Shown here: positions 1,042-57,343 of the stretch, one piece after another | How the letters are laid out: the number at the start of each line of letters is the position of its first letter | Position numbering within the stretch: position 1 is the stretch's first letter | From: Candidatus Nomurabacteria bacterium | GTDB lineage: Bacteria; Patescibacteriota; Patescibacteriia; HK-STAS-PATE-3 | NCBI GenBank assembly: GCA_023898465.1 | Contig: CP060223.1 | Span: forward strand, 1,018,587-1,082,586 | DNA length: 64,000 nt | Direction of reading: 5' to 3' | Notes under the pieces: generated by a model | The model's database searches: none | What the model was told of the DNA's origin: nothing | What the model saw: only the letters and a program-made list of their open reading frames with translations | Made by a program: the position numbers and the translations under genes

Positions 1042-1614
1042 CTACGCTCTCTCGACGTATTCGCCGGTTTCAGTGTTGACGCGGATGACGTCGCCGTTTT
1101 TCACAAATGCCGGGACGCGGATAGTCGCACCAGTTTCCACTTTTGCTTCTTTTAAAACAGCACCTTGGGCAGTATCACCACGGACAGCGTCTGTGGTTTC
1201 TGTTACCGTCAGAGTTAGCTTCATTGGCAATTCAATAGTAACTGGCTTGCCGTTGTAGTTCATGATATCGACATCGAGTCCCTCAGTCATGAATTGCACT
1301 TCGTGTTCGAGTTGTGTTAGGGGGAGGGAGAATTGGTCGTAGCTTTCCGAGTCCATAAACACGCACTGATCGCCCTCGACATAGAGGAAACTTGCTTTGC
1401 CACGGCTAAGATCAGCCCGCTCTACTCGGTCGCCTGACTTAAAGGTCTGCTCGATAACCCGGCCATCCAACAAGTTTTTCAACTTCGTACGCATGTTCGG
1501 CTTACCCTGCGATTTGCGCATGAAGGATGCTTCCACAATCTTATATGGTGCACCACTCCAGTTAATCACCACGCCGAGTTTTAGGTCGGTGAGGTTTTGT
1601 AGAATGTCAGCCAT
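1042..1614 (-). CDS. efp: Elongation factor P
   Basis: Full-length similarity to EF-P (KOW/OB domains; ...KNGDVIRVNTETGEYVERA). Confidence 0.95.
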   Translation of the reverse strand: MADILQNLTDLKLGVVINWSGAPYKIVEASFMRKSQGKPNMRTKLKNLLDGRVIEQTFKSGDRVERADLSRGKASFLYVEGDQCVFMDSESYDQFSLPLTQLEHEVQFMTEGLDVDIMNYNGKPVTIELPMKLTLTVTETTDAVRGDTAQGAVLKEAKVETGATIRVPAFVKNGDVIRVNTETGEYVERA

Positions 1615-1617
1615 ATA

Positions 1618-1842
1618 CTATTGAACCACAAATGGGATAAGCGCCATGAAGCGAGCACGCTTGATTGCTTCGGCCAGGCGTCGCTGGTGCTTCATGCAGA
1701 CACCTGATCGGCGCCGCGGCACAATCTTCCCATATGAAGAAGTGAAACGCTGCAAGAGGCGAGTATCTTTGTAATCAATGTCTTCGATTGCGTTGACGCA
1801 AAAGTGACATGAGTGAGGTTGGATTTTTTGAGTGTTGTTCAT
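1618..1842 (-). CDS. rpsR: 30S ribosomal protein S18
   Basis: CHFC...IDYKD...[27 protein letters not shown]; conserved rpsF-ssb-rpsR cluster. Confidence 0.95.
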
Positions 1843-1843
1843 A

Positions 1844-2284
1844 CTAGAAAGGAATTTCTTCTACATTAATTTCGCCGTCATCAGCTGGGGCCGATTGAGG
1901 AGCACTTGCACCAGCACTGTCCTGTGACGGTGCGCTAGACATCGGGCTTTGGCCAGGTCGGTCAAGCATAATCATATTCTCAGCTACGATTTCTGTTCGG
2001 TTTCGCTTATTGCCTGATGGGTCTTCCCAGTTACGGGTTTGCATGCGACCTTCGATGAAGACGCGGCTACCCTTTTTGAGATATTGACTGCAGGTTTGTG
2101 CTAAACCAGACCAGGCGACAACATTATGGAACTCAGCAGCTTGCTTTCGTTCTCCGCTGTCTCGGTCTTTCCAAGTGCGGTTTGTAGCGACGCCGAATGA
2201 GCAGACTGATTGTCCGTTTGGAGTGTTACGGAGCTCAGGGTCTCGAGTGACGTTGCCGATAATTTGTGCGCGATTGAAATCCAT
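1844..2284 (-). CDS. ssb: Single-stranded DNA-binding protein
   Basis: OB-fold N-terminus; Gly/Ser/Ala-rich linker; acidic C-terminal tail [12 protein letters not shown]. Confidence 0.9.
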
Positions 2285-2296
2285 AGGTGTGTTTGC

Positions 2297-2794
2297 TTAT
2301 TTGATGAGATCTTGTTCAAGGAGCTCGTCGATTTTTTCGTCTAAGTTTTCGAGAGAAGCGCGATCGTCTTCTTTTTCCACCTTGCGAGAAGAGGTGTTTT
2401 CCTCTTTTTCATCGCGTGACTCTTCAGCCTCGCTTTGCGCTTCTGCGCGTCGCTTGGCTTGAATGCGTTCTTGCAATTCCCGCTGGGCTGCTTCCATTTC
2501 TGGAGTGCGGACTGGCAAACGGATAATCTGATGACGTACTAAGTCTTGCTCGAGTCGAAAAATGCGATCGAGCTCAGCTAACTTTGTGCCGTCGATATCA
2601 AGCTCAAGAAGGACATAGAAGCCCTGCTTTAAGTGATTAATCTCATAGGCTAAGCGGCGCTTGCCCATGTTTTCGATTTTGGTGATTTGTCCACCAATAT
2701 CGCTGATGTGCTTTTGCAACGTAGAAGCGTATTGTTCAGCTTCTTCGTCAGTAAAGCGGGGGTTGATGAGGAGGAGTAATTCGTAGTGTTGCAT
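2297..2794 (-). CDS. rpsF: 30S ribosomal protein S6 with a long acidic C-terminal extension
   Basis: MQHYELLLLINPRFTDEEAE...GKRRLAYEI matches S6. True start is the internal Met (cat at 2792-2794); the upstream 40 codons of the track ORF look non-coding. Confidence 0.9.
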   Translation of the reverse strand: MQHYELLLLINPRFTDEEAEQYASTLQKHISDIGGQITKIENMGKRRLAYEINHLKQGFYVLLELDIDGTKLAELDRIFRLEQDLVRHQIIRLPVRTPEMEAAQRELQERIQAKRRAEAQSEAEESRDEKEENTSSRKVEKEDDRASLENLDEKIDELLEQDLIK

Positions 2795-3102
2795 ATGCTG
2801 AATTAAGAATATCGCACGGATGGCGGACCCGGGCGATGTAGACTTAGCTATATCGTGCGGGGGCCCTTGAGGGGTAATCCTTACTTCGCATAGAGCTCGA
2901 AGGACTGTCCGCAATCTCGTTGTAAAAGCACCCTAACACAGGGTTATTTTTTTGGCAAGGGTAGAGAAAGTAAAGCACGAAACTCCAAATACAAGGCTCT
3001 AAACAAATTCTAAATCCAAAACATTTACTAAATAGACTGAATTTAGGTCATTGAAATTTCTTATTTGTTTGGATATTCGATATTAGTATTTAGAATTTAT
3101 CT

Positions 3103-4335
3103 ATGAGACTGTGCTACACTTCTCCTATGCCCCAGTATTACTTTATTCTTGGTAAAAACCCGAAGCTCTCTTTAGCAGAGCTAGACCAAGCCCTGCAGAC
3201 TCGTGCCATTACCAGCGAAGTGGTGGCTCGTGCTTCTGACTACTGTATTTTGGAGACCAAAGAAGAGTTAAATCTGGTGGAGTTATTGCAGCACTTGGGA
3301 GGTACACTGAAGGCAGGGCAAATACTTGAAGGGCTTTCTTCACGAGATGAAGTACAAAGTATCTGCGCAAATGTAGATTGGGCAGAGAAAAAACTACCGC
3401 TCACAAAACATCGGGCAGAATTTGGTATAAGCGTCTACGGGACAAAAAAGTCTGGACCCTTAAGTAAGCGCTATGGTCTAGGTTTAAAAAAAGCATTGCA
3501 GTCAATTGGACATTCTGTGCGGATGATTTTTGATCCAAGCGGCCAACTCAGCAGTGTTACCGTAGCAAAGAATGGATTACTGAGTAAGGGTTTTGAGCTT
3601 TGCGTGTTAGAAAGTGCCACTCAACATTGGCTTGGACTTAGTCAGGCAGTGCAATCATTCCGCAAGTTTAGTGAGCGGGATTATGGCCGACCTGACCGTG
3701 ATGCGCGCAATGGCATGCTTCCGCCAAAGTTGGCACTCATGATGCTTAATATTGCGGGCGCAAAAAGCGGAAGCGTCGTGCTCGATCCTTTTTGTGGATC
3801 AGGTACTGTACTGCAAGAAGCACTTTTGCTGGGATGCAAAAAAGTTTATGGTTCGGATATTAGCGAGAAGGCGGTAAAAGATTCGCAAAATAATGTACAG
3901 TGGCTTAGTACGCAGGAGAAGTCGATTGGCACTGTGCAGATACGTAAAGTTGACGCTCGTCAGCTGCGTCCTACCTATGTCGCAGAGTCGGTTGATGTGA
4001 TTGTGACCGAGCCAGACCTTGGTCCGCCGCGACCGGCGCGTAACGAGGAGCAAATAGAAGAACGACGACAAGAAGCCATTGCTTTGTATCGATCTTTCTT
4101 ATCATCAGCGACCAAGGTGTTGAAGGCAAACGGTCGGGTGGTTATGGCTTGGCCCGTTTGGTCTCTGCAGGATACTCGTTATCACTTGCATCCAAAGAAA
4201 ATACTACCAGACGGCTGGACACTACTTTGGCCCTATGGTGATCTAGTATCGCAGGATGGTGAAAAGACCTTGCTCTATGAGCGACCAGGTCAGTTTGTAG
4301 CTCGTGAGATTGTGATACTCTCCCCAAATAAATAG
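3103..4335 (+). CDS. Putative SAM-dependent methyltransferase (UPF0020/Trm11/RlmL-like amino-methyltransferase fold), substrate unknown
   Basis: Motif I VLDPFCGSGTVLQEA; acidic D/E ...SDISEKA; motif IV-like VTEPDLGPP. Confidence 0.6.
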   Translation: MRLCYTSPMPQYYFILGKNPKLSLAELDQALQTRAITSEVVARASDYCILETKEELNLVELLQHLGGTLKAGQILEGLSSRDEVQSICANVDWAEKKLPLTKHRAEFGISVYGTKKSGPLSKRYGLGLKKALQSIGHSVRMIFDPSGQLSSVTVAKNGLLSKGFELCVLESATQHWLGLSQAVQSFRKFSERDYGRPDRDARNGMLPPKLALMMLNIAGAKSGSVVLDPFCGSGTVLQEALLLGCKKVYGSDISEKAVKDSQNNVQWLSTQEKSIGTVQIRKVDARQLRPTYVAESVDVIVTEPDLGPPRPARNEEQIEERRQEAIALYRSFLSSATKVLKANGRVVMAWPVWSLQDTRYHLHPKKILPDGWTLLWPYGDLVSQDGEKTLLYERPGQFVAREIVILSPNK

Positions 4336-8349: not shown

Positions 8350-8453
8350 GACTACCTCCGAGTTTGCAGCCATTTGCATGGTAGTTAGTTTTTACCTTTA
8401 GGTCAATAAAAACCTGCGAGTATATTCTTGACAAAGGGTCATGAATTGCTAAG

Positions 8454-8663
8454 GTGGTTTTGTTTACTAGGCTCTTTTTAGGCGAGGTGCACATGGCTGA
8501 GAAAATGCCCAAATCAGTAAAGGCCAAGAACGCTCAGTTTGAGCAATGTCCGATCTGCCGACAGGTAGATATCCGACCACTTGTAGATCATCTCACCCCG
8601 GACGGTAAGATGACCTGTCCTGGACCGCGGCTTCAGGTATGTGACGGTGAATCAAGCAACTGA
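8454..8663 (+). CDS. Hypothetical small Cys-containing (CPxC ... CPGP..C) protein, probably starting at the internal Met (MAEKMPK...)
   Basis: Promoter-like TTGACA-16-TAAGGT upstream; Cys pattern suggests a zinc ribbon. Confidence 0.3.
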   Translation: MVLFTRLFLGEVHMAEKMPKSVKAKNAQFEQCPICRQVDIRPLVDHLTPDGKMTCPGPRLQVCDGESSN

Positions 8664-8675
8664 GGAGGTGTTACC

Positions 8676-8891
8676 GTGGCGGATGGTGAATCGACTGGCG
8701 GATCGATCGAGTACTCGATCGGCACGCCTGAAGGGTGGGAAGAGCTCAAGCGAGCTCAACGAGACCTTCGAGATGCGCAAGCGGGTTCGAGCGGCTGTTT
8801 TCTCCGGCCTCATTGGCCAAAGAGAGAGGTGGTCAGAGCACTGAAAGAGCATGGACTCTTGAAGTCCAAGACTCGTGAGCGACCGTCCTAG
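8676..8891 (+). CDS. Hypothetical small protein (71 aa), GTG start, GC-rich
   Basis: RBS GAGGAGG upstream of GTG; intrinsic terminator 8879-8908 (gcgacc..ggtcgc+T5) overlaps the stop. Confidence 0.45.
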   Translation: MADGESTGGSIEYSIGTPEGWEELKRAQRDLRDAQAGSSGCFLRPHWPKREVVRALKEHGLLKSKTRERPS

Positions 8892-8935
8892 GATGGTCGC
8901 TTTTTCTTTATTGCAAAAACGCCTCGCTAAGAGAG

Positions 8936-9454
8936 TTAGTATGGGATCGAATCAATCAAAGAGTAGTTAGCATTTACAAAATCTTTATAGCTTGACCACG
9001 GCCAGTCCTCAGGTTTATTTACCAACCCATCCCTCACTGGATTATAATGAATATAGTTCACGTGATGATTTAGATCTTGTTGGTCACGGATGATGTGGTC
9101 GTAAAATGATTTTTGCCAAATAAATTTCGTAGATAGCCGAGGATGATCATCCTCGGCTATGAGGTGTGGATATATAATATTAATACTCCTTGAAATGTTT
9201 CTTTTTAGGCAATGCATAAGATCAGAAATATTACTTTCATAACGAGGCCGTAACAAAAAATGTGCATGATCATGCATTACAACATACGCGTATAGATAAT
9301 AAGGTTGGATATTTTTTGTTATTTGGAGTCGGGAGATAACAATATTCGCAAGATGAGAATCTTTGAAGAAGGGAATTCTATTGTGAGTTACAATTGTGAC
9401 AAAATATATTCCATCCGGAATATAGATTCGTTTAAGCTTACTAATAAACAACAT
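8936..9454 (-). mobile_element. IS200/IS605-family Y1 (REP-associated tyrosine transposase-like) transposase gene, very AT-rich
   Basis: HxH motif (MHDHAHFLL) and catalytic Tyr region (FYDHIIRDQQD...YIHYNPVRDGLVN...DWPWSSY) typical of the Y1_Tnp family; GC of about 32% against about 58% flanks. Confidence 0.8.
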
Positions 9455-9532
9455 GGCGTCTCCTTAAAGATCGCCACATTTCCAGCCTATACTGCTGTTC
9501 TGGAAAAGTAAAGCTGCGCGATACTGAGTCCC

Positions 9533-10582
9533 TTACTGACTGATATGGAAATGCACAACGTCTCCATCTTGGATGATGTACTCCTTGCCTTCCATGCGCA
9601 TGAGGCCTTTTGCTTTTGCGTTAGCTTCGCTCCCAGCCTCAAGTAAGGTTTTCCAGTTAATCACTTCAGCTCGAATGAAAGCCTTAATAAAGTCGGTATG
9701 AATCACTCCAGCAGCTTGCGGGGCGGGACTTCCTTGCTTCACAGTCCAAGCGCGGGTTTCCTTCGGACCCGTGGTCAACATGGTGATGAGGTTGAGCAAT
9801 TCGTAGGAAGCGCGAATGAGTCGATCAAGTCCACTCGATTTCCATCCCAATTCTTGCAGCATGGCTTTTGCGTCTTCGCTGGGGAGCTCGGCTAGTTCAG
9901 CTTCCATTTTTACGCATACTTTTAGCGGAGTGGTGGCCTCACTTACCTCATCTTCGCTCACGTTATAGAGAGTGAGGATAGGCTTCATAGTAAGTAGATT
10001 GAGGTAGCGAATCGCCTCCTTTTCCTCTTTACTGAGATCGACAGTATTGGCTGGCTTCCCTTCATTCAGAGCTGCATTTATTCGCTCTAATATACCCACC
10101 TGCAACTTGGCTTCTTTGTCACCTGATCGAGCTTTACCGTTTTGTGTATCTAAAGCTTTTGTCACCTGATCTAAATCAGCCATAGCCAGTTCATAGAGGA
10201 TAGTTTGTTCATCCTCATCTGGGTTGACTCGACCGGATACATGATGGACATTCGCATCTTCAAATCCACGTACGACGTGACAGATTGCATCAACCTCTCG
10301 GATGTTTGAGAGAAATTTATTACCTAAGCCTTCACCTTGCGAAGCACCTTTGACCAAACCGGCAATGTCGACAAACTCAATTGTCGTAGGAATAATTTCC
10401 TGCGATGCTGAGAGTTTTGCTAAAGGCTCCAATCGATCATCAGGCACGGCAACGACGCCCACATTTGGGTCAATGGTAGCAAAAGGATAGTTAGAGGTAT
10501 CAACCTGCTTTTTGGTTAGCGCTTGGAAAAGGGTTGATTTACCGACATTGGGTAGTCCGACAATTCCGACCTGCAGTGACAT
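9533..10582 (-). CDS. ychF: Ribosome-binding ATPase YchF (Obg-family GTPase)
   Basis: GIVGLPNVGKSTLFQALT G1 motif, TGS C-terminal domain. Confidence 0.95.
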   Translation of the reverse strand: MSLQVGIVGLPNVGKSTLFQALTKKQVDTSNYPFATIDPNVGVVAVPDDRLEPLAKLSASQEIIPTTIEFVDIAGLVKGASQGEGLGNKFLSNIREVDAICHVVRGFEDANVHHVSGRVNPDEDEQTILYELAMADLDQVTKALDTQNGKARSGDKEAKLQVGILERINAALNEGKPANTVDLSKEEKEAIRYLNLLTMKPILTLYNVSEDEVSEATTPLKVCVKMEAELAELPSEDAKAMLQELGWKSSGLDRLIRASYELLNLITMLTTGPKETRAWTVKQGSPAPQAAGVIHTDFIKAFIRAEVINWKTLLEAGSEANAKAKGLMRMEGKEYIIQDGDVVHFHISQ

Positions 10583-16161: not shown

Positions 16162-17391
16162 TTACAACTCAGGATAGAGTGGGAAGGCGGCAGTTAATTC
16201 CTCTACCATTTGTATTGTCTGCTTTTGCTGCTCCTCGCTCTTTGGATTCTTGAGCAGTGCGGCAATAGCCTGACCAATGCGAGTGAACTCAGCTTCTTTC
16301 ATGCCTCGGGTAGTCAGTGCAGGAGAGCCTAAACGGATTCCTGACGGATCCATAGGCTTGCGCGGATCATCCGGGATCATGTTTTTATTCAAAGTAATGT
16401 GAACGCTGTCGAGTAATTCCTGGGCTTCTTTACCGCCTAAACCAAGCGGAGTGACATCAGCCAGGATAAGGTGATTTTCCGTGCCACCAAACATTATGCG
16501 CATACCACCTTCTTGTAATGCATTGCAGAGTGCCTGTGCGTTCAACTTAATTTGCTTCGCGTAGTCTTTAAACTCAGGAGTAAGCGCTTCTCCAAAAGCA
16601 ACAGCTTTCGCCGCAATGTTATGTTCATGCGGACCGCCCTGCATACCAGGGAAGACTGCTTTATCAATTGCTTTGGCATGTTGCTCTTTGCACATAATCA
16701 TACCGCCGCGAGGTCCGCGTAGGGTTTTGTGCGTAGTGGTAGTAACGACATCAAAGAGCGGCACTGGATTCGCCATTTCTCCAGCAGCAATTAATCCGGC
16801 AATATGGGAAATATCGGCCATGGTCAGCGCGCCAACCTCATCAGCAATTTTTTTTACCCGCGCATATTCAATTTCTCGCGAATAAGCAGAGTAGCCAACC
16901 AGGATGAGTTTCGGATGATGCTCTTTTGCCAATCGCTCCATTTCTTCGTAATCGATCTGTCCCTCGGCGGTTGTTTTGTAGCGAATGAAGTTAAACAGTT
17001 TAGCCATCCAGGTCACCGGATGTCCGTGGGTGAGGTGACCGCCATGACTGAGGTCCATACCTAGCACTGTGTCGCCCGGTTCCAGCAAGGCAGAGTACAC
17101 CTCGATATTTGCTGGTGCGCCTGAGAGGGGTTGCACATTCACATGCTCGGCGCCAAAAAGCTGTTTAGCTCGGTCAATCGCCAACTGCTCAACCGTATCG
17201 ACATGTTCGGTACCGCCATAATAGCGTTTACCAGGATAGCCTTCGGAATATTTATTTGTGAGCACAGAGCCGAGTGCCTCAAGTACAGCCAAGGAAACAA
17301 AGTTCTCGGATGGAATCAATTCAAGGCCGTGGCGCTGGCGTTCCAGCTCAGCCTTGATGGCTTCTTGGATAATTGGGTCGTGGGTTTGCAT
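16162..17391 (-). CDS. glyA: Serine hydroxymethyltransferase
   Basis: [20 protein letters not shown]-Lys region ([14 protein letters not shown]). Confidence 0.97.
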
Positions 17392-18232
17392 CGGACTTGA
17401 GTGTAGAATGCTCTGGGCGGACTGGCAAGGGATAGCGTTTCTGGCTAATACGAATGAGCATCCAGAAACCGAGCAGGATAAAAAGTGCGCTCACAATGAG
17501 CGGCAGACGTATACCGATAATATGTGGCGTTGCATCAAAGCGAAAGAGCTCGGCTGCAAAACGGCCAACTCCATAGAGTAGGAAAAAGAGGGCGGTAACA
17601 ACCCCAATCGCTGTGTCATTTTGACGTTTTCGTTCCAGCCAAATAAAGCCAAGTAGTAGCACTACACCGAAAAGATCAATGAGCGATTCATAAAGGAAGA
17701 CCGGATGAAAGTAGCTGGCGTTGATATAGCTTTCTGGTCGAAGTGATTCAGCAATTGGAATGCCCCAAGGCAAGCTTGTTGGTCGTCCAAATAACTCTTG
17801 ATTAAAATAGTTTCCCCAACGCCCAATACTTAAGCCCAGGAGTACGCCAGGCGCCAGGAGGTCCGTCAGGCGAAGGAGGGGAAGTTGCAAGCGCCTTGCT
17901 CCATAATAGAGCACTAGTAATCCGACAAGTATGCCACCATGGATAGCCAGGCCGCCCTGCCAAATTTGGAATATGTCACCTGGGTGTTGCCAATAGTACA
18001 CGGGTTCGTTCAGCACGTGATAGAGCCGCGCGCCAATGAAGCCGAGAAAGGCAGTGAGCAGGAGGAGGTCGGTCAGTCGGCCGAGCGGGATATTTCGCTT
18101 ACGAGAAAGGAGGTAGGTAATAAAATACGCGCTCAGCATGCCCAGACTTAAGCAGAGTCCGTACCAGCTAATAGAGATATTTCCTAGCGTAAAAGCGACG
18201 GCATTGGGAAGTGTTTCGTGGAGGAAATCCAT
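17348..18232 (-). CDS. lgt: Prolipoprotein diacylglyceryl transferase
   Basis: Multi-TM Lgt pattern (ISWYGLC..., [25 protein letters not shown]). Confidence 0.9.
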
Positions 18233-18322: not shown

Positions 18323-18408
18323 GCCGGAGTGGTGAAATGGCAGACACGCCAGGTTTAGGACCTGGTGGGAGCAATCCCGTGGAGGTTCAAGTCCTCTCTC
18401 CGGCACCA
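18323..18408 (+). tRNA. tRNA-Leu (anticodon TAG), long variable arm, CCA encoded
   Basis: Acceptor gccggag/ctccggc; anticodon stem ccagg/cctgg with loop ttTAGga; T-loop ttcaagt; 3' acca. Confidence 0.85.
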
Positions 18409-18415
18409 CGGCCCA

Positions 18416-18475
18416 TCGCGGGCTGCGGCTTCCGTAGATTCAAACAAGTTGAATCTACGGAAGCCTCCACCCGCG
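18416..18475 (+). other. Long near-perfect hairpin (17-bp perfect core ggcttccgtagattcaa / ttgaatctacggaagcc, extended by gcggg..cccgc) immediately 3' of tRNA-Leu
   Basis: Direct inspection; part of the tRNA-associated repeated element. Confidence 0.7.
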
Positions 18476-18584
18476 TGTGCCTCTTCGTCTCGCGCTTAAC
18501 CCTTCGGGCCCAAGTCTTGAATATACATACAAAACAAGGTCAGCGCGCTGCTGGCCTCTTTCTTTTTCCCGTAATGTGAGCGCA

Positions 18585-19310
18585 CTACGCTTTGGCGAGC
18601 GTATCGTCCTTCTTATCCTCACTCTCCTTTGTTGCTGTTTCTTTCATTTCAGCAAAGTGTGCATCTAGGAATCGATTCAGGGCAGTACGGAGAGCGTTGG
18701 CCTGCGGTTTTGCTTCAAAGATTTTTACAATATCCTCTTTTACCTCCGCCCAAAGTTCCTTACTTACCTGGGACTCATATCGCAAAATATCTGGCAACGC
18801 ATTTTTTTGCCAACTGATTAGAGCGCGACCGCTTCGATTTTTTTCACTTAACTCATCGCGCAATCGCATGAGCTCATTGCGTAATTCACTTCGATAATAG
18901 CGACGATGAATGCGTCGGTGGCGTTCGTCCTTCAGCACGCTGAAAAGGAAGAGAAGCAACCAACCTGCGCCAAGTAGCACCACGCCAAAGAGTAGTGCTT
19001 GGAGCCAGCCAGCGCCAACCATTTCCATGAGGGTGGTTGAGAAGAGGAAGGAAAATCCTGCCACAATCATAGCTAGGCCATTTCGGGTAGCCCGACGTTC
19101 CGCTAAAAGATTCACAGCCGCAAAGGGATTCTGGCCATAGAATCCGCGTGTCTCATCTTCAATCTGTTGAGGAGATTTTACCAAACTGAAACTGAGGAGA
19201 ATACCTCCGATAAACTGCATGCCAAGTCCGATAAGTTGCAGTGCTTCCATAACAATAGTATAGCGATTTTTTATTGAGAACCCAAATGCGCTATACTGCA
19301 AATGAGACAT
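18585..19310 (-). CDS. Hypothetical membrane protein (2-3 TM N-terminal, charged coiled C-terminal half)
   Basis: Hydrophobic segments followed by an RR/E-rich region; no recognisable family. Confidence 0.45.
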   Translation of the reverse strand: MSHLQYSAFGFSIKNRYTIVMEALQLIGLGMQFIGGILLSFSLVKSPQQIEDETRGFYGQNPFAAVNLLAERRATRNGLAMIVAGFSFLFSTTLMEMVGAGWLQALLFGVVLLGAGWLLLFLFSVLKDERHRRIHRRYYRSELRNELMRLRDELSEKNRSGRALISWQKNALPDILRYESQVSKELWAEVKEDIVKIFEAKPQANALRTALNRFLDAHFAEMKETATKESEDKKDDTLAKA

Positions 19311-21116: not shown

Positions 21117-24203
<3,087 letters not shown>

Positions 24204-24451: not shown

Positions 24452-24568
24452 CTCCGGTGCTTCAAGCGATGAGGTCACACCCGATCCCATTCCGAACTCG
24501 GTCGTTAAGCTCATCAGCGCTGATGATACTACGGGGCATACCGTTGGGAAAGTAAGCCAGTGCCGGTT
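24452..24568 (+). rRNA. rrf: 5S ribosomal RNA
   Basis: ...cacccgatcccattccgaactcggtcgttaagctcatcagcgctgatgatactacgggg... with terminal helix ccggtgc/gtgccgg; T-rich terminator follows at 24575-24615. Confidence 0.85.
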
Positions 24569-25936: not shown

Positions 25937-27685
25937 ATGACACCAACAACGCAAAGGAAAGCAAATACAGGACAACATCGACGACGTCGACGATCCCGCA
26001 ATCAAACAGCACCGGGACAGTCTTCTCCAAAGCTACGCCTGATACCCCTGGGTGGCATGGAAGAAGTTGGGCGAAATTCGATGATTTTAGAGTATGGGAA
26101 AGATATTCTCATTATTGATTTGGGCTTGCAGTTTCCTGAGGAGGATATGCCGGGCGTGGATTATAGTATCCCAAATATTTCCTACCTCAAGGGCAAGGAA
26201 AAAAATGTACGAGGAATTCTCATCACGCATGGTCATTATGACCACATTGGAGGCGTGCCACATTTAGTGCATAAGTTAGGTAACCCAACCATTTACGGAT
26301 CAGACCTTACTCTGGCGTTAATAAAGAAGAAGCAGGAAGATATCAACCCGCAGCACAAGCTGCGTTTAGTAACGGTAAAGAAAGATACGAAGTTAAAAAT
26401 TGGCCCTTTCCGTATTGAGTTTGTAGGCCTGTCTCATAATATCCCTGCTAGCTTTGGTATTATCATACATACCCCCCTCGGCCCAGTGATGCACACGGGT
26501 GATTTTAAGATTGACCATAAGGGTGGCTATCGCAACGAGACTGATATTCAAAAAATCGAGCGTTTGAAAAAAATGCGGATGTTGGCGCTCATGTGTGATT
26601 CAACCAATGCCCCACATCAAGGCCATCAACTTTCTGAGAGTGAAATTACTCAGAACCTAGAAGAAATGTTTAAGCGAGCAAAAGGACGCATAATTTTTGC
26701 TACTTTTGCATCTTTGCTTACTCGCATTCAGCAGATTGTGTGGCTGGCCGAGAAGCACAATCGTAAAGTGCAGGTTGAAGGCTTCAGCATGCGTACTAAT
26801 ATTGAGATTGCGAAACAGCTAGGCTATCTCAAGTCAAAAAAAAACACTTTTGTGAAAGATAAGGAAGCAGCGAAATTGCCCGACAGTCGCCGTGTGATTC
26901 TTTCCACCGGCGCGCAAGGTGAAGAGCGGGCAGTGTTGATGCGTATGGCAAACGGCGAACATAAGTATTTGAAAATCCAAAAAGGCGACCTAGTCGTATT
27001 TTCATCTTCCGTGGTGCCGGGGAATGAGCGGGCAGTGCAGCGCTTAAAGGATGGACTCTTCCGCGAAGGTGCAGATGTATATGACAACCAGATGCTCGAT
27101 ATTCACGCTGGCGGTCATGCCAAAAGCGAGGATCTTCGCTGGTTCATCCGCACGATTCGACCGCAGTACTTTATTCCTATTGAAGGCAATCACTCTTTCC
27201 TACGCATGAACGCACGCTACGCTATGGAGGAGGGCATGGCCGAGGATCACGTCTTAGTCGCTGATAACGGTCAGGTGATTGAATTTACGAAGCAAGGTGG
27301 CAAGTTGACCAAGGAATATGTCCCAACCGATCATGTTTTTGTGGATGGCTTAGGCGTGGGCGATGTTTCTCATGTGGTGCTCCGTGATCGTAAGCATTTA
27401 TCAGCCGACGGCATGGTGTTGATTGTAGCGACTGTCGATGGTCGGACTGGTCGGCCCCTTGGGAAGCCCGACATTATTACGCGAGGTTTTATTTTCCCAC
27501 AAAGCAATCAACAGTTGTTGAATGAAATTCGTAAGACGGTGCAGGGTGAGCTCAAAGACACCGAGCCAAAGACTCAGGCAAATGAAGCTGATTTGCGCAA
27601 TAAAATTCGTAAGGCATTAGAAAAGCTCATCTTCAAGCGCATTGAGCGCACGCCAATGATTTTGCCAGTAATCATAGTGACCTAG
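25937..27685 (+). CDS. rnj: Ribonuclease J (metallo-beta-lactamase/beta-CASP RNase)
   Basis: ITHGHYDHIGG zinc-binding motif, beta-CASP and C-terminal domains. Confidence 0.95.
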   Translation: MTPTTQRKANTGQHRRRRRSRNQTAPGQSSPKLRLIPLGGMEEVGRNSMILEYGKDILIIDLGLQFPEEDMPGVDYSIPNISYLKGKEKNVRGILITHGHYDHIGGVPHLVHKLGNPTIYGSDLTLALIKKKQEDINPQHKLRLVTVKKDTKLKIGPFRIEFVGLSHNIPASFGIIIHTPLGPVMHTGDFKIDHKGGYRNETDIQKIERLKKMRMLALMCDSTNAPHQGHQLSESEITQNLEEMFKRAKGRIIFATFASLLTRIQQIVWLAEKHNRKVQVEGFSMRTNIEIAKQLGYLKSKKNTFVKDKEAAKLPDSRRVILSTGAQGEERAVLMRMANGEHKYLKIQKGDLVVFSSSVVPGNERAVQRLKDGLFREGADVYDNQMLDIHAGGHAKSEDLRWFIRTIRPQYFIPIEGNHSFLRMNARYAMEEGMAEDHVLVADNGQVIEFTKQGGKLTKEYVPTDHVFVDGLGVGDVSHVVLRDRKHLSADGMVLIVATVDGRTGRPLGKPDIITRGFIFPQSNQQLLNEIRKTVQGELKDTEPKTQANEADLRNKIRKALEKLIFKRIERTPMILPVIIVT

Positions 27686-31309: not shown

Positions 31310-31801
31310 ACTTGAGCCCTTCTTTCGAAGTGTGAATCTTCCTATGTCCCATCCATGGGACGCGAACGAAACGTAGAGCAGGCTCTACTAAAGGAATTTC
31401 AGTGTCATTCGACCTCCACAGCTAGCTCCCAATTCCCCCAGTTTCCTCGGATGAACACTCCTTCGATTGAAGGATGAAAAAGGCGAGGTGAGTCTCTACA
31501 TGTTCACTCGGACACAGATAGCAGAGTGTGCTGACGGGTGAGGGCTCAAGCTAACCCAGTCAGTCACAATGCTACCGTGCCGTTTCCTTAGAACAGTCTA
31601 CAGAGAGACTCACCTCAGATCGGTAGTTTGAGATTGCGAAAGAGCAATCGAACTGTACGCACAAAAATAGCCCCTATTTGGGCTTTTGTCAAGACTATAG
31701 CGATAGTAAAAAATTTCCTGGAGCGGGTAGCTCCCGCAATTCAGCGGGATAAAGTCCATCGAACCCGCACTGTATGTAAGTATTTCTCCTTACGTCCTCT
31801 G

Positions 31802-31872
31802 AGCGGGTGAGGGGAATCGAACCCCTGGCATCAGCTTGGAAAGCTGAGGTATTACCACTATACGACACCCGC
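31802..31872 (-). tRNA. tRNA-Gly (anticodon TCC), CCA not encoded
   Basis: Reverse complement gcgggtg tc gtat agtggtaat acc tcagc ttTCCaa gctga ... ggggttcgattcccc t cacccgc. Confidence 0.85.
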
Positions 31873-35112: not shown

Positions 35113-35187
<75 letters not shown>

Positions 35188-35202: not shown

Positions 35203-35279
35203 GCGGGTGTAGTTCAGTTGGCTAGAACGTCTCCTTGCCAAGGAGAAGGTCGGCGGTTCGAATCCGCTCACCCGCTCCA
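35203..35279 (+). tRNA. tRNA-Gly (anticodon GCC), CCA encoded
   Basis: Acceptor gcgggtg/cacccgc; anticodon stem tctcc/ggaga with loop ttGCCaa; T-loop ggttcgaat. Confidence 0.85.
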
Positions 35280-35527
35280 CGGGCCATCACTTACTGCGGG
35301 CTCCGTGAAGACAAATACATTGTCCTCACTGCGCCCTTCGCAAGGATGTCCCTTTACGCCTCAGACTTAACCCTGCGGGCCCAAGTCTTCGGCGTTTGAG
35401 CAGAGAAAGAGCTTAATTTCATATCCTGTTGGCGGACCACTTCGACCCCTTGTGCATTGAAGAAACCTTTTTGTTTTTTTGATGTGCGTTTGTTATAGTA
35501 AAAAAGTCTCAATTAATATCAATGTAA

Positions 35528-56680: not shown

Positions 56681-56728
56681 ATCCGCCCAGGATCAATTCC
56701 TGGGTTACGAGGTACAATATTGACATCG

Positions 56729-56754
56729 CCGCCCAAGCTCAATGCTTGGGCTAC
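56729..56754. repeat. REP-like palindromic element (ccgcccaagc-tcaat-gcttgggctac), copy 1, 3' of the RAYT gene
   Basis: 8-bp stem / 5-nt loop hairpin; identical 26-mer to copy 2. Confidence 0.8.
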
Positions 56755-56785: not shown

Positions 56786-57265
56786 TCAAAGGAAATCAGG
56801 ATTATCTAAATGAATCGGTTCATTGAGACTAAGATATCGAGCCTTAGCTGAAGACCAAGGATAGTCTGTTGCTTCATTCACCAATCCTGATTGAACAGGG
56901 TTGTGATGAATATAAGCCGCTTTATTATTGTAGTCATTTTGATCCCGTATAATATGATCATGAAAACCATGCTGAATAAGTTGTCCGGATTTATTTTTTC
57001 TAATATTCCATTCCCGCGAAAATCTTCCATTGAGATGTCGTAGGGTGTTGCTAATCGAGCCATCTTTTGATGGACAAATAATGAGATGGTAATGATCAGG
57101 CATGAGCACGAATTCGTATATGCGAATCCCGTAGCGGACACGCAGTTGTATGAGAATGTTCAAAAAAATATTACAAGCAGTTTCGGAAAGGAATATATTG
57201 CGCCGCTTGTGCATGACCACAGTTACAAAGAAAGGGAGATAATAGATGTCTAGGCGCTTTTTCAT
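56786..57265 (-). mobile_element. IS200/IS605-family Y1 transposase (REP-associated tyrosine transposase, RAYT-like)
   Basis: HxH (MPDHYHLII) and Tyr region (FHDHIIRDQNDYNNKAAYIHHNPVQSGLVN..DYPWSS); flanked both sides by identical REP hairpins. Confidence 0.8.
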
Positions 57266-57273
57266 ATCAAACT

Positions 57274-57343
57274 CCGCCCAAGCTCAATGCTTGGGCTACG
57301 TAAAAATGTAATTCTCTGCGCAGGCGAAGAATTGATCTTCGCC
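57274..57343. repeat. REP-like palindromic element, copy 2 (identical 26-mer), plus a second hairpin ggcgaaga-attga-tcttcgcc, 5' of the RAYT gene
   Basis: ccgcccaagctcaatgcttgggctac at 57274-57299; ggcgaagaattgatcttcgcc at 57323-57343. Confidence 0.8.

Follow-up and report, generated by a model that had tools for sequence, protein, structure and literature searches.

A structure-conserved element family attached to the 3' ends of tRNA genes in Patescibacteria

RNAs linked to tRNA genes include E. coli 3'ETS-leuZ, the plant tRNA-snoRNA units and the gammaherpesvirus tRNA-miRNA units, which are released by tRNA 3' processing. Integron attC sites carry an inverse core RYYYAAC and a core GTTRRRY at their two ends, and the two ends pair in one hairpin. 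PATEs, which are MITEs of the IS200/IS605 type, are recognized, on their folded (active) strand, by a conserved target of four or five nucleotides located 5' of the left end and by a distance of about 10-20 nt from each cleavage site to the foot of the hairpin. HDV-like and hatchet ribozymes cut at their own 5' ends and are recognized by a nested pseudoknot or by family core motifs.

The sequences described here form a family of elements of about 115-122 nt that is attached to tRNA genes, conserved in structure and absent from current libraries. Searches against Rfam 15 (E<=10, both strands) with the window copies A and B and with copies from L008, L012 and L136 give no match over the element; only the tRNAs match. 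Like the tRNA 3' external transcribed spacers and other tRNA-linked RNAs, the element shares the strand of a tRNA and directly adjoins its 3' end, and maturation of that tRNA 3' end would generate the 5' end of the element. The known examples, however, are not multi-copy, structure-conserved families that span tRNAs and genomes, and the element folds better on the antisense strand. With attC sites it shares conservation of structure over sequence, conserved ends around a variable middle, a length within about 60-140 nt, conserved unpaired bases, the occurrence of hybrid sites and a better fold of the strand antisense to the cassette gene. It differs from attC sites in having two hairpins, unconserved cores and no IntI gene, and the "cassette" would be a tRNA gene.

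Copies A and B and the adjoining tRNA genes

ARAGORN finds four tRNAs in the window, as the whole 64-kb stretch of DNA that was analysed is called here. Two of them abut copies of the element (Table 1). A preliminary description of this DNA had placed an element directly after the CCA end of tRNA-Gly(GCC) in a tRNA-Cys/tRNA-Gly pair. The pair is present, tRNA-Gly ends in an encoded CCA, and copy B begins at the next base. There is no element 3' of tRNA-Cys(GCA), and tRNA-Gly starts 15 nt downstream of it.

Table 1. Positions of copies A and B, their structural parts and related features of the window.
Feature	Position	Strand	Remarks
tRNA-Cys(GCA)	35113..35187	+	First gene of tRNA pair; ARAGORN; Rfam tRNA 70.2 bits
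tRNA-Gly(GCC), CCA encoded	35203..35279	+	Last base abuts copy B; ARAGORN, Rfam
Copy B, whole element, 115 nt	35280..35394	+	C, 5' hairpin domain, UUUA linker, 3' hairpin domain
B 5' domain	35281..35352	+	Manual structure, alignments
B P1	35281-83/35350-52	+	Followed by conserved C.U mismatch
B P2	35285-88 and 35290-93 with 35341-48	+
B conserved internal loop	CUGC 35294-97 / UUCG 35337-40	+
B P3a	35298-301/35333-36	+
B P3b	35305-14/35320-29	+	Loop 35315-19
B 3' domain	35357..35394	+	Manual structure, alignments
B P4, CGCC/GGCG	35357-60/35391-94	+	Followed by UC/UC 2x2 loop
B P5, AGACUU/AAGUCU	35363-68/35383-88	+	Followed by A / CC asymmetric loop
B P6, CCC/GGG	35371-73/35377-79	+	3-nt loop
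24-mer	35366..35389	+	Core of B 3' domain (P5 end, P6, start of P5 3' strand); window pattern count
tRNA-Leu(TAG), CCA encoded	18323..18408	+	Abuts copy A; ARAGORN
Copy A	18409..18524	+	5' domain architecture as in other copies; 108.7 bits with covariance model R1
Lgt gene	17348-18232		Neighbour of copy A
Intrinsic terminator, canonical (9-bp stem and CTTTCTTTTT)	18537..18567	+	3' of copy A; kept in sister strain
Y1 transposase genes, IS200-like, RAYT type (PF01797)	8936-9454, 56786-57265	-	37% identical to each other

Copies A and B each begin at the base 3' of an encoded CCA, that of Leu-TAG for A and that of Gly-GCC for B. Copy B starts with CGGGCCATC at 35280 and copy A with CGGCCCATC at 18409. 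The two are homologous: about 115 nt align with almost no gaps, and covariance model R1 scores copy B at 126.6 bits over 35280-35395. Of the extent first proposed for copy B, 35280-35400, the start holds and the end moves to about 35394. The 24-mer CTTAACCCT[G/T]CGGGCCCAAGTCTT, named as a shared 3' block, occurs in the window only in copy B and at 18495-18518 in copy A, against a chance expectation of 0. The shared 5' 9-mer is likewise present at both starts, but by itself it is not significant (at <=1 mismatch, 12.5 matches are expected and 18 occur). The block that A and B truly have in common at equal offset is CTGCGG, at element positions 15-20.

Two other parts of the preliminary description have to be replaced. 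The supposed common block gcgggctccg is out of register: in A, GCGGGC forms one strand of a helix, whereas in B it covers an internal loop and the helix that follows. The ccttcgcaagg hairpin said to stand in B for the 17-bp hairpin of A is not its counterpart, which is an interrupted 4+10-bp hairpin at 35298-35336 (GGGC..GTGAAGACAA/TTGTCCTCAC..GCCC). CCCTTCG and CAAGGATG of copy B belong to separate helices, each pairing with the 5' part, and covariation over seven copies supports this.

Relatives and conserved secondary structure

Pattern scans and a covariance model reveal relatives in a sister strain and in a further two lineages of Patescibacteria, preceded by tRNA-Thr, tRNA-Ser, a foreign tRNA-Leu and a syntenic tRNA-Leu. 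The known set comprises seven full and about six partial copies in three lineages. In five of the seven full copies, each behind a different tRNA (Leu, foreign Leu, Gly, Thr and Ser), the first base immediately follows the CCA, and all are on the tRNA strand. Upstream of the remaining two, the first 7-8 nt of the element are repeated imperfectly in tandem. The earlier suggestion of a mobile or structured family, as opposed to random intergenic DNA, is borne out by homologues that lie behind tRNAs in other genomes in the same position and orientation; a lack of other genomic copies had been named as evidence against it, and such copies exist.

In the sister strain (L008; Lgt 98% identical) the same locus holds a divergent tRNA-Leu(TAG) with a third version of the element, A', directly 3' of it. 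A gapped pattern derived from A, B and A' locates a copy on a JGI contig (L012) directly 3' of tRNA-Thr(GGT), with further copies nearby. A 23-nt 5' pattern has 112 matches in GTDB, of which 111 are chance matches in high-GC genomes and one is real; this copy (L028) lies directly 3' of tRNA-Ser(GGA). Model R1 was built from five copies, which did not include L009 and L012:949-1070. It detected these two unseen copies, L012:949-1070 and L009:4286-4401, each at about 95 bits (E ~1e-22). Copies identical to L009:4286-4401 are present in L010 and L011. The L009 element lies between a homologue of a 241-aa ORF of the window and lgt, which are the neighbours of copy A, at a protein identity of 52-54%. 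There tRNA-Leu and the element are inverted together, as one unit, compared with the window, and the helices are kept by compensatory change.

Searches elsewhere were negative. Models R1 and R2, the latter built for the 3' domain alone (71.1 bits for that of copy B) and also run with filters off, find no further copy in the window, and the two models find none beyond those listed in about 140 kb of related loci. The window with a 10-kb leftward extension holds two copies in all, both at tRNA ends. The exact 20-mer of the 3' block has 0 matches in GTDB genomes and JGI metagenomes, and looser patterns give only chance matches in viral contigs, with flanks that are not conserved. BLAST against phages matched the tRNA only and BLAST against plasmids gave no match. 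Lgt-anchored loci of other relatives (L131-L135, L140 and L141) are without the element. Copies abut the CCA of five different tRNAs exactly and in one orientation and are lacking elsewhere, which indicates that the element is tied to tRNA genes. No protein gene consistently accompanies the copies. A GIY-YIG nuclease was considered as a partner, since it adjoins the L012 and L028 copies, and was rejected because it is absent from the window.

All seven full copies are built alike, as two imperfect hairpins whose internal loops are conserved. The structure was drawn manually and checked on alignments of five and seven copies. The 5' domain opens with P1 (GGS/SCC, 3 bp) and a C.U mismatch that is invariant. 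P2, a bulged helix of about 8 bp, comes next, then a conserved internal loop with CUGC facing UUCR, P3a (4 bp) and a variable P3b hairpin, the loop of which is often ACAAG. A linker of 3-4 nt leads to the 3' domain, in which P4 (4-5 bp) is followed by an invariant UC/UC loop, P5 (6 bp, ending CUU/AAG in every copy), an A / CC loop and P6 with a 3-nt loop. In copy A, P3 is a continuous 17-bp helix and the 3' domain is degenerate, with no P4 and with unmatched P5 arms (GCGCUU against AAGUCU).

Bases are paired in 94-95% of the alignment cells, and 26-27 of the 38-41 pairs show compensatory double changes. None of 500 shuffles reaches the observed pairing and compensation, and slid controls are 29-51% paired. 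For the seven-copy alignment taken singly, the values are 94% of cells, 26 of 38 pairs and 31-51% in the slid controls. P5 occurs as AGACUU/AAGUCU, ACGCUU/AAGCGU and GUACUU/AAGUAC, and P4 as CGCC/GGCG, CAUC/GAUG and CGUC/GACG. The variable core, first noted as a pattern of the family, keeps its base-pairing via compensatory changes. Folding computations indicate that the tRNA and the two hairpins of the element fold independently.

Three other structures or functions were considered and rejected. Pairing between the 5' end and the distant 24-mer does not survive in A', where a G>A change disrupts 5' GGSCC / 3' GGGCCC pairing yet compensates the local P6 helix. A UUCG-tetraloop register for P6 is disfavoured by covariation, which supports the triloop register. 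A short peptide ORF from the ATG in GGATGTCCC meets a stop at codon 4 in A', and its lengths and C-termini vary; the element is not coding.

A separate observation concerns the GATG of the P4 3' strand. It gives an ATG that is stop-free and in frame with the downstream ORF at L009:4398, L028:1224 (-) and L012:877 (-), and these are all three loci where an ORF closely follows the element. In L009 and L028 the element is followed by GGGAGA and a second CCCAAGUG half-site, which in L009 is the better partner for P5.

Remodelling of the tRNA loci

In L008/L136 and in L012, full copies have tandem arrays of partial units behind them, each unit made up of the last ~12 nt of the 5' domain and a 3' domain. 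Three 3' domains (A, L136 and L009) are hybrids with unmatched P5 arms. The 3' domains are alike within a genome (65-81% identity), and the B-type 5' domain is common to several genomes behind different tRNAs (74-79% identity). Replacement in the sister strain starts at tRNA-Leu position 12 and extends to the core of the 3' domain. L008:269-330 (-) together with L136 (sister strain, SRR17818317) retains only the first 11 nt of the resident tRNA-Leu; this remnant is followed by 44 nt of new sequence and then by the divergent, apparently foreign tRNA-Leu(TAG) with its own element and partial units. This is a strain-level replacement. The comparisons show that these loci recombine actively and that remodelling around the tRNA genes is unusually active. 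Either homologous recombination in the longest shared block or site-specific recombination could have generated the rearrangements.

Other insertions and tRNA-derived sequences are found at or near such loci. In L009 a 2.9-kb DGR cassette (RT, bAvd; 1347-4262) is inserted between tRNA-Leu and the element. It contains 132-nt TR/VR-like direct repeats (3280-3411 and 3844-3975), has 143-nt inverted repeats of 94% complementarity at its boundaries, and is flanked by a GCACCA direct repeat. In L132 the tRNA-Leu(TAG) beside lgt shares its 3' end with a large serine recombinase gene (8408-9928), so the same tRNA locus is an integration site there. A pseudo tRNA-Tyr 3' half with a 54-nt T-loop insert and an altered acceptor strand lies right after an intact tRNA-Tyr at L012:1130-1245 (-). 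Small GIY-YIG nuclease ORFs (80-85 aa) adjoin tRNA genes at L012:1403-1645 (-), L028:1445-1702 (-) and L141:2842-3096 (-). Those of L012 and L028 are 50% identical, and those of L012 and L141 have GC-rich structured spacers upstream. In the window tRNA-Gly(TCC), at 31801-31872, has no encoded CCA. About 30 nt 3' of it, at 31715-31800 (-), is a fragment resembling a tRNA-Gly 3' half (gcgggttcgatgg...cccgc...acccgctcca), which is possibly a duplication or an integration scar.

A proposed co-transcribed trailer and the competing explanations

The explanation that we prefer, and to which we assign about an even chance, is that the element is a structured 3' trailer that is co-transcribed with the tRNA, is released by cleavage at CCA and works as a processing or insulating module. 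It includes the spread and reshuffling of copies between tRNA loci by recombination. A further role as a trans-acting small RNA is possible. The trailer is favoured by the attachment to tRNAs, by the signs of sense transcription and by the independent folding. A canonical terminator follows copy A and none lies between A and its tRNA, which places copy A inside the tRNA-Leu transcription unit. This terminator is bidirectional and also ends a convergent gene, 18585-19310(-). A promoter scan finds no promoter-like site between tRNA and element. In L028, L009 and L012, ORFs on the same strand start no more than tens of nucleotides from the element; those of L028 and L012 begin within 50 nt and are without a promoter-like site of their own. 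From the terminator after A, the lack of an intervening promoter and these close ORFs, the sequence indicates that the sense strand is transcribed through the element. The features expected of a trailer RNA, namely position on the tRNA strand, no promoter in between and a terminator downstream, are thus found, with the terminator clear for A only. Retention has been long-term, as the unit of tRNA-Leu and element lies between the same two genes in the L009 lineage despite the protein divergence given above.

Transcription from the tRNA promoter would run through the tRNA, or tRNAs, and the element. The trailer is predicted computationally to fold into two independent imperfect hairpins, with the first helix 2 nt after CCA. 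This first hairpin would block 3' exonucleolytic trimming, so that an endonucleolytic cut at or next to CCA|C would be needed. Thermotoga-type RNase Z cleaves after CCA and is a candidate enzyme for this cut. In the released RNA the 5'-proximal hairpin would shield the RNA, or the downstream mRNA at loci with a following ORF, from 5'-3' decay by RNase J, an enzyme that is encoded in the window at 25937-27685. The element would in this way serve in processing and as insulation between the tRNA and the sequence downstream.

Some features speak against the trailer. The antisense strand folds better in all seven copies, and the sense strand is rich in C and poor in G, an unusual composition for a structured RNA. 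Conserved non-Watson-Crick positions also look wrong on this strand. The partial tandem units and hybrid hairpins are not needed by the model. If the trailer is real, it would be the first of its kind to be described for bacterial tRNA genes, a 3' trailer module with conserved structure at multiple loci. It would also offer a handle on the maturation of encoded-CCA tRNA 3' ends in the Patescibacteria, which are genome-reduced and cannot be cultured alone. Whichever explanation holds, R1 and R2 provide a testable definition of the family.

The antisense strand is the more stable by 6-18 kcal/mol, and the RNAalifold consensus folds are at -57.2 kcal/mol for antisense and -42.6 kcal/mol for sense. 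The sense A.C, C.U, UC/UC and UGC/UUC become antisense G.U pairs, tandem G.A, GAA/GCA loops and mostly C(GNA)G triloops; such triloops are very stable in DNA. Simple counts of G.U against A.C in five copies are 6 against 9, and the antisense bias is seen only in the seven-copy analysis. The better antisense fold and the lack of a conserved antisense promoter leave room for a role of the bottom strand as single-stranded DNA. The element would then be a DNA recombination site whose bottom strand folds for a recombinase or nuclease in the manner of attC, with tRNA and element as an exchangeable cassette. We consider this unlikely. It is consistent with the stable antisense motifs (G.A, G.T and the triloops), with the replacement in the sister strain of a tRNA-Leu by another that carries its own element and an array of partial units, and with the inversion of the tRNA-Leu and element unit as a whole between lineages. 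The hybrid 3' domains would place crossovers in the conserved core, and other mobile DNA, the DGR cassette of L009 and the serine recombinase of L132, is present at the same junction.

Against a recombination site, no recombinase gene is associated with any copy: a Pfam scan of the 39 window ORFs and the genes next to the L009, L012 and L028 copies include no recombinase or integron integrase. The 5' end of the element pairs with positions 71-73, not with the 3' end, and there are two separate hairpins where attC has one that pairs both ends. The core motifs are not conserved, as RCTTAAC fits only A, B and L012-1 (the others have AGT, AAT or AGC) and GTTRRRY is absent. Homologous recombination within the longest shared block would yield the same hybrids. 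A true attC-like bottom-strand site that makes tRNA genes exchangeable cassettes in Patescibacteria is more improbable still, although it would explain the swap of tRNA-Leu with its element, the hybrid hairpins and the antisense folding bias. If an antisense or DNA explanation were correct, a recombination system acting at tRNA genes that has not been described would be involved.

The same thermodynamics and the loop composition would suit an independent small-RNA gene that runs on the antisense strand towards the tRNA and ends there, and one minus-strand promoter-like site lies about 100 nt upstream of B (35522-35495). Such a gene is very unlikely. No promoter or sequence is conserved beyond P4 on that side, the last hairpin has no U-tract, and at A the terminator of the convergent gene sits just before the element. 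The sense-strand ORFs that start close to the element in L028, L009 and L012 mean that the sense strand must be transcribed there. An antisense gene also gives no reason for the exact abutment to CCA.

Equally doubtful is a non-autonomous mobile repeat, either REP/REPIN or a MITE derived from IS200/605, whose single-stranded hairpins a Y1 HUH transposase would use to move it. The window encodes two Y1 transposases of the IS200-like kind (Table 1), folding is strand-asymmetric, and B-type 5' domains stand behind different tRNAs in different genomes. As in PATEs and MITEs of the IS200/IS605 group, the hairpins are near both ends, the seven junctions show no terminal inverted repeats or target duplication, and the position is 3' of a fixed short sequence (..CCA in the element). 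However, the distances from hairpins to ends do not fit: the left hairpin is 1 nt from the junction and leaves no room for the guide and cleavage-site arrangement of IS608 type. The two hairpins are unlike each other, and the strand that folds better is opposite to the one that carries the CCA "target". On the folded strand no target motif is conserved; the antisense 5' flank is TCAA in three copies of the window lineage and CTCCC-like in the others.

REP/REPIN sequences are defined by a GT(A/G)G head followed by a short palindrome (PMC2817692). Their cognate RAYT gene has the repeat on its flanks, and copies are numerous and scattered through intergenic DNA. The element resembles REP, BIME and REPIN sequences with their RAYT genes in being a short extragenic hairpin repeat at gene 3' ends, with palindromes kept by complementary mutations, tandem composite arrays and Y1 transposase homologues in the genome (PMC2817692). 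It has no GT(A/G)G head on either strand, is a two-domain element of about 115 nt, and is found strictly at tRNA CCA ends, at a very low copy number (only two copies in about 84 kb, none away from tRNAs) in place of abundant dispersed copies. It flanks neither Y1 gene, and the second of these is flanked by its own, different REP-like repeat (GTAG and CCCAAGC/GCTTGGG). A RAYT link was rejected on account of this different repeat; the flanks of both Y1 genes show no similarity to the element.

Least probable of all is an intrinsic terminator of the tRNA operon or a decaying attachment-site scar of an integrated element: GC-rich hairpins at the end of a tRNA unit, the U-runs after the 3' domains of B (3 U) and A' (5 U), the use of tRNA 3' ends as classic integration sites and the tRNA fragments nearby are outweighed by the missing U-tract in most copies, the separate canonical terminator after A, a terminator scan that reports none at the element itself, two domains with conserved internal loops, no flanking repeat of the tRNA 3' end, and a structure kept by compensatory change across lineages, which is not expected of a scar. 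Self-cleaving ribozymes (HDV-like, hatchet) were rejected as there is no Rfam match and no pseudoknot, and the only candidate long-range pairing is the one broken in A'.

Two further features of the window are recorded here. The second Y1 gene has a 26-nt repeat, CCGCCCAAGCTCAATGCTTGGGCTAC, on both sides, and repeats lie at 56686-56704, 56732-56750 and 57277-57295. On the other strand CCGCCCAAGCTCAATGCTTGGGCTAC reads as GTAG plus a hairpin, a REP-like signature, and the two flanking copies are direct, not inverted. The GTAG-plus-hairpin repeat is located at 56732-56750 and 57277-57295. A 5S rRNA gene at 24453-24568 (+) lies 3' of the 23S rRNA gene, and the 16S rRNA gene is absent from the window. 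The 23S rRNA match at 21117-24203 (+) covers 3087 nt against a model of 2925 nt, so insertions are likely.
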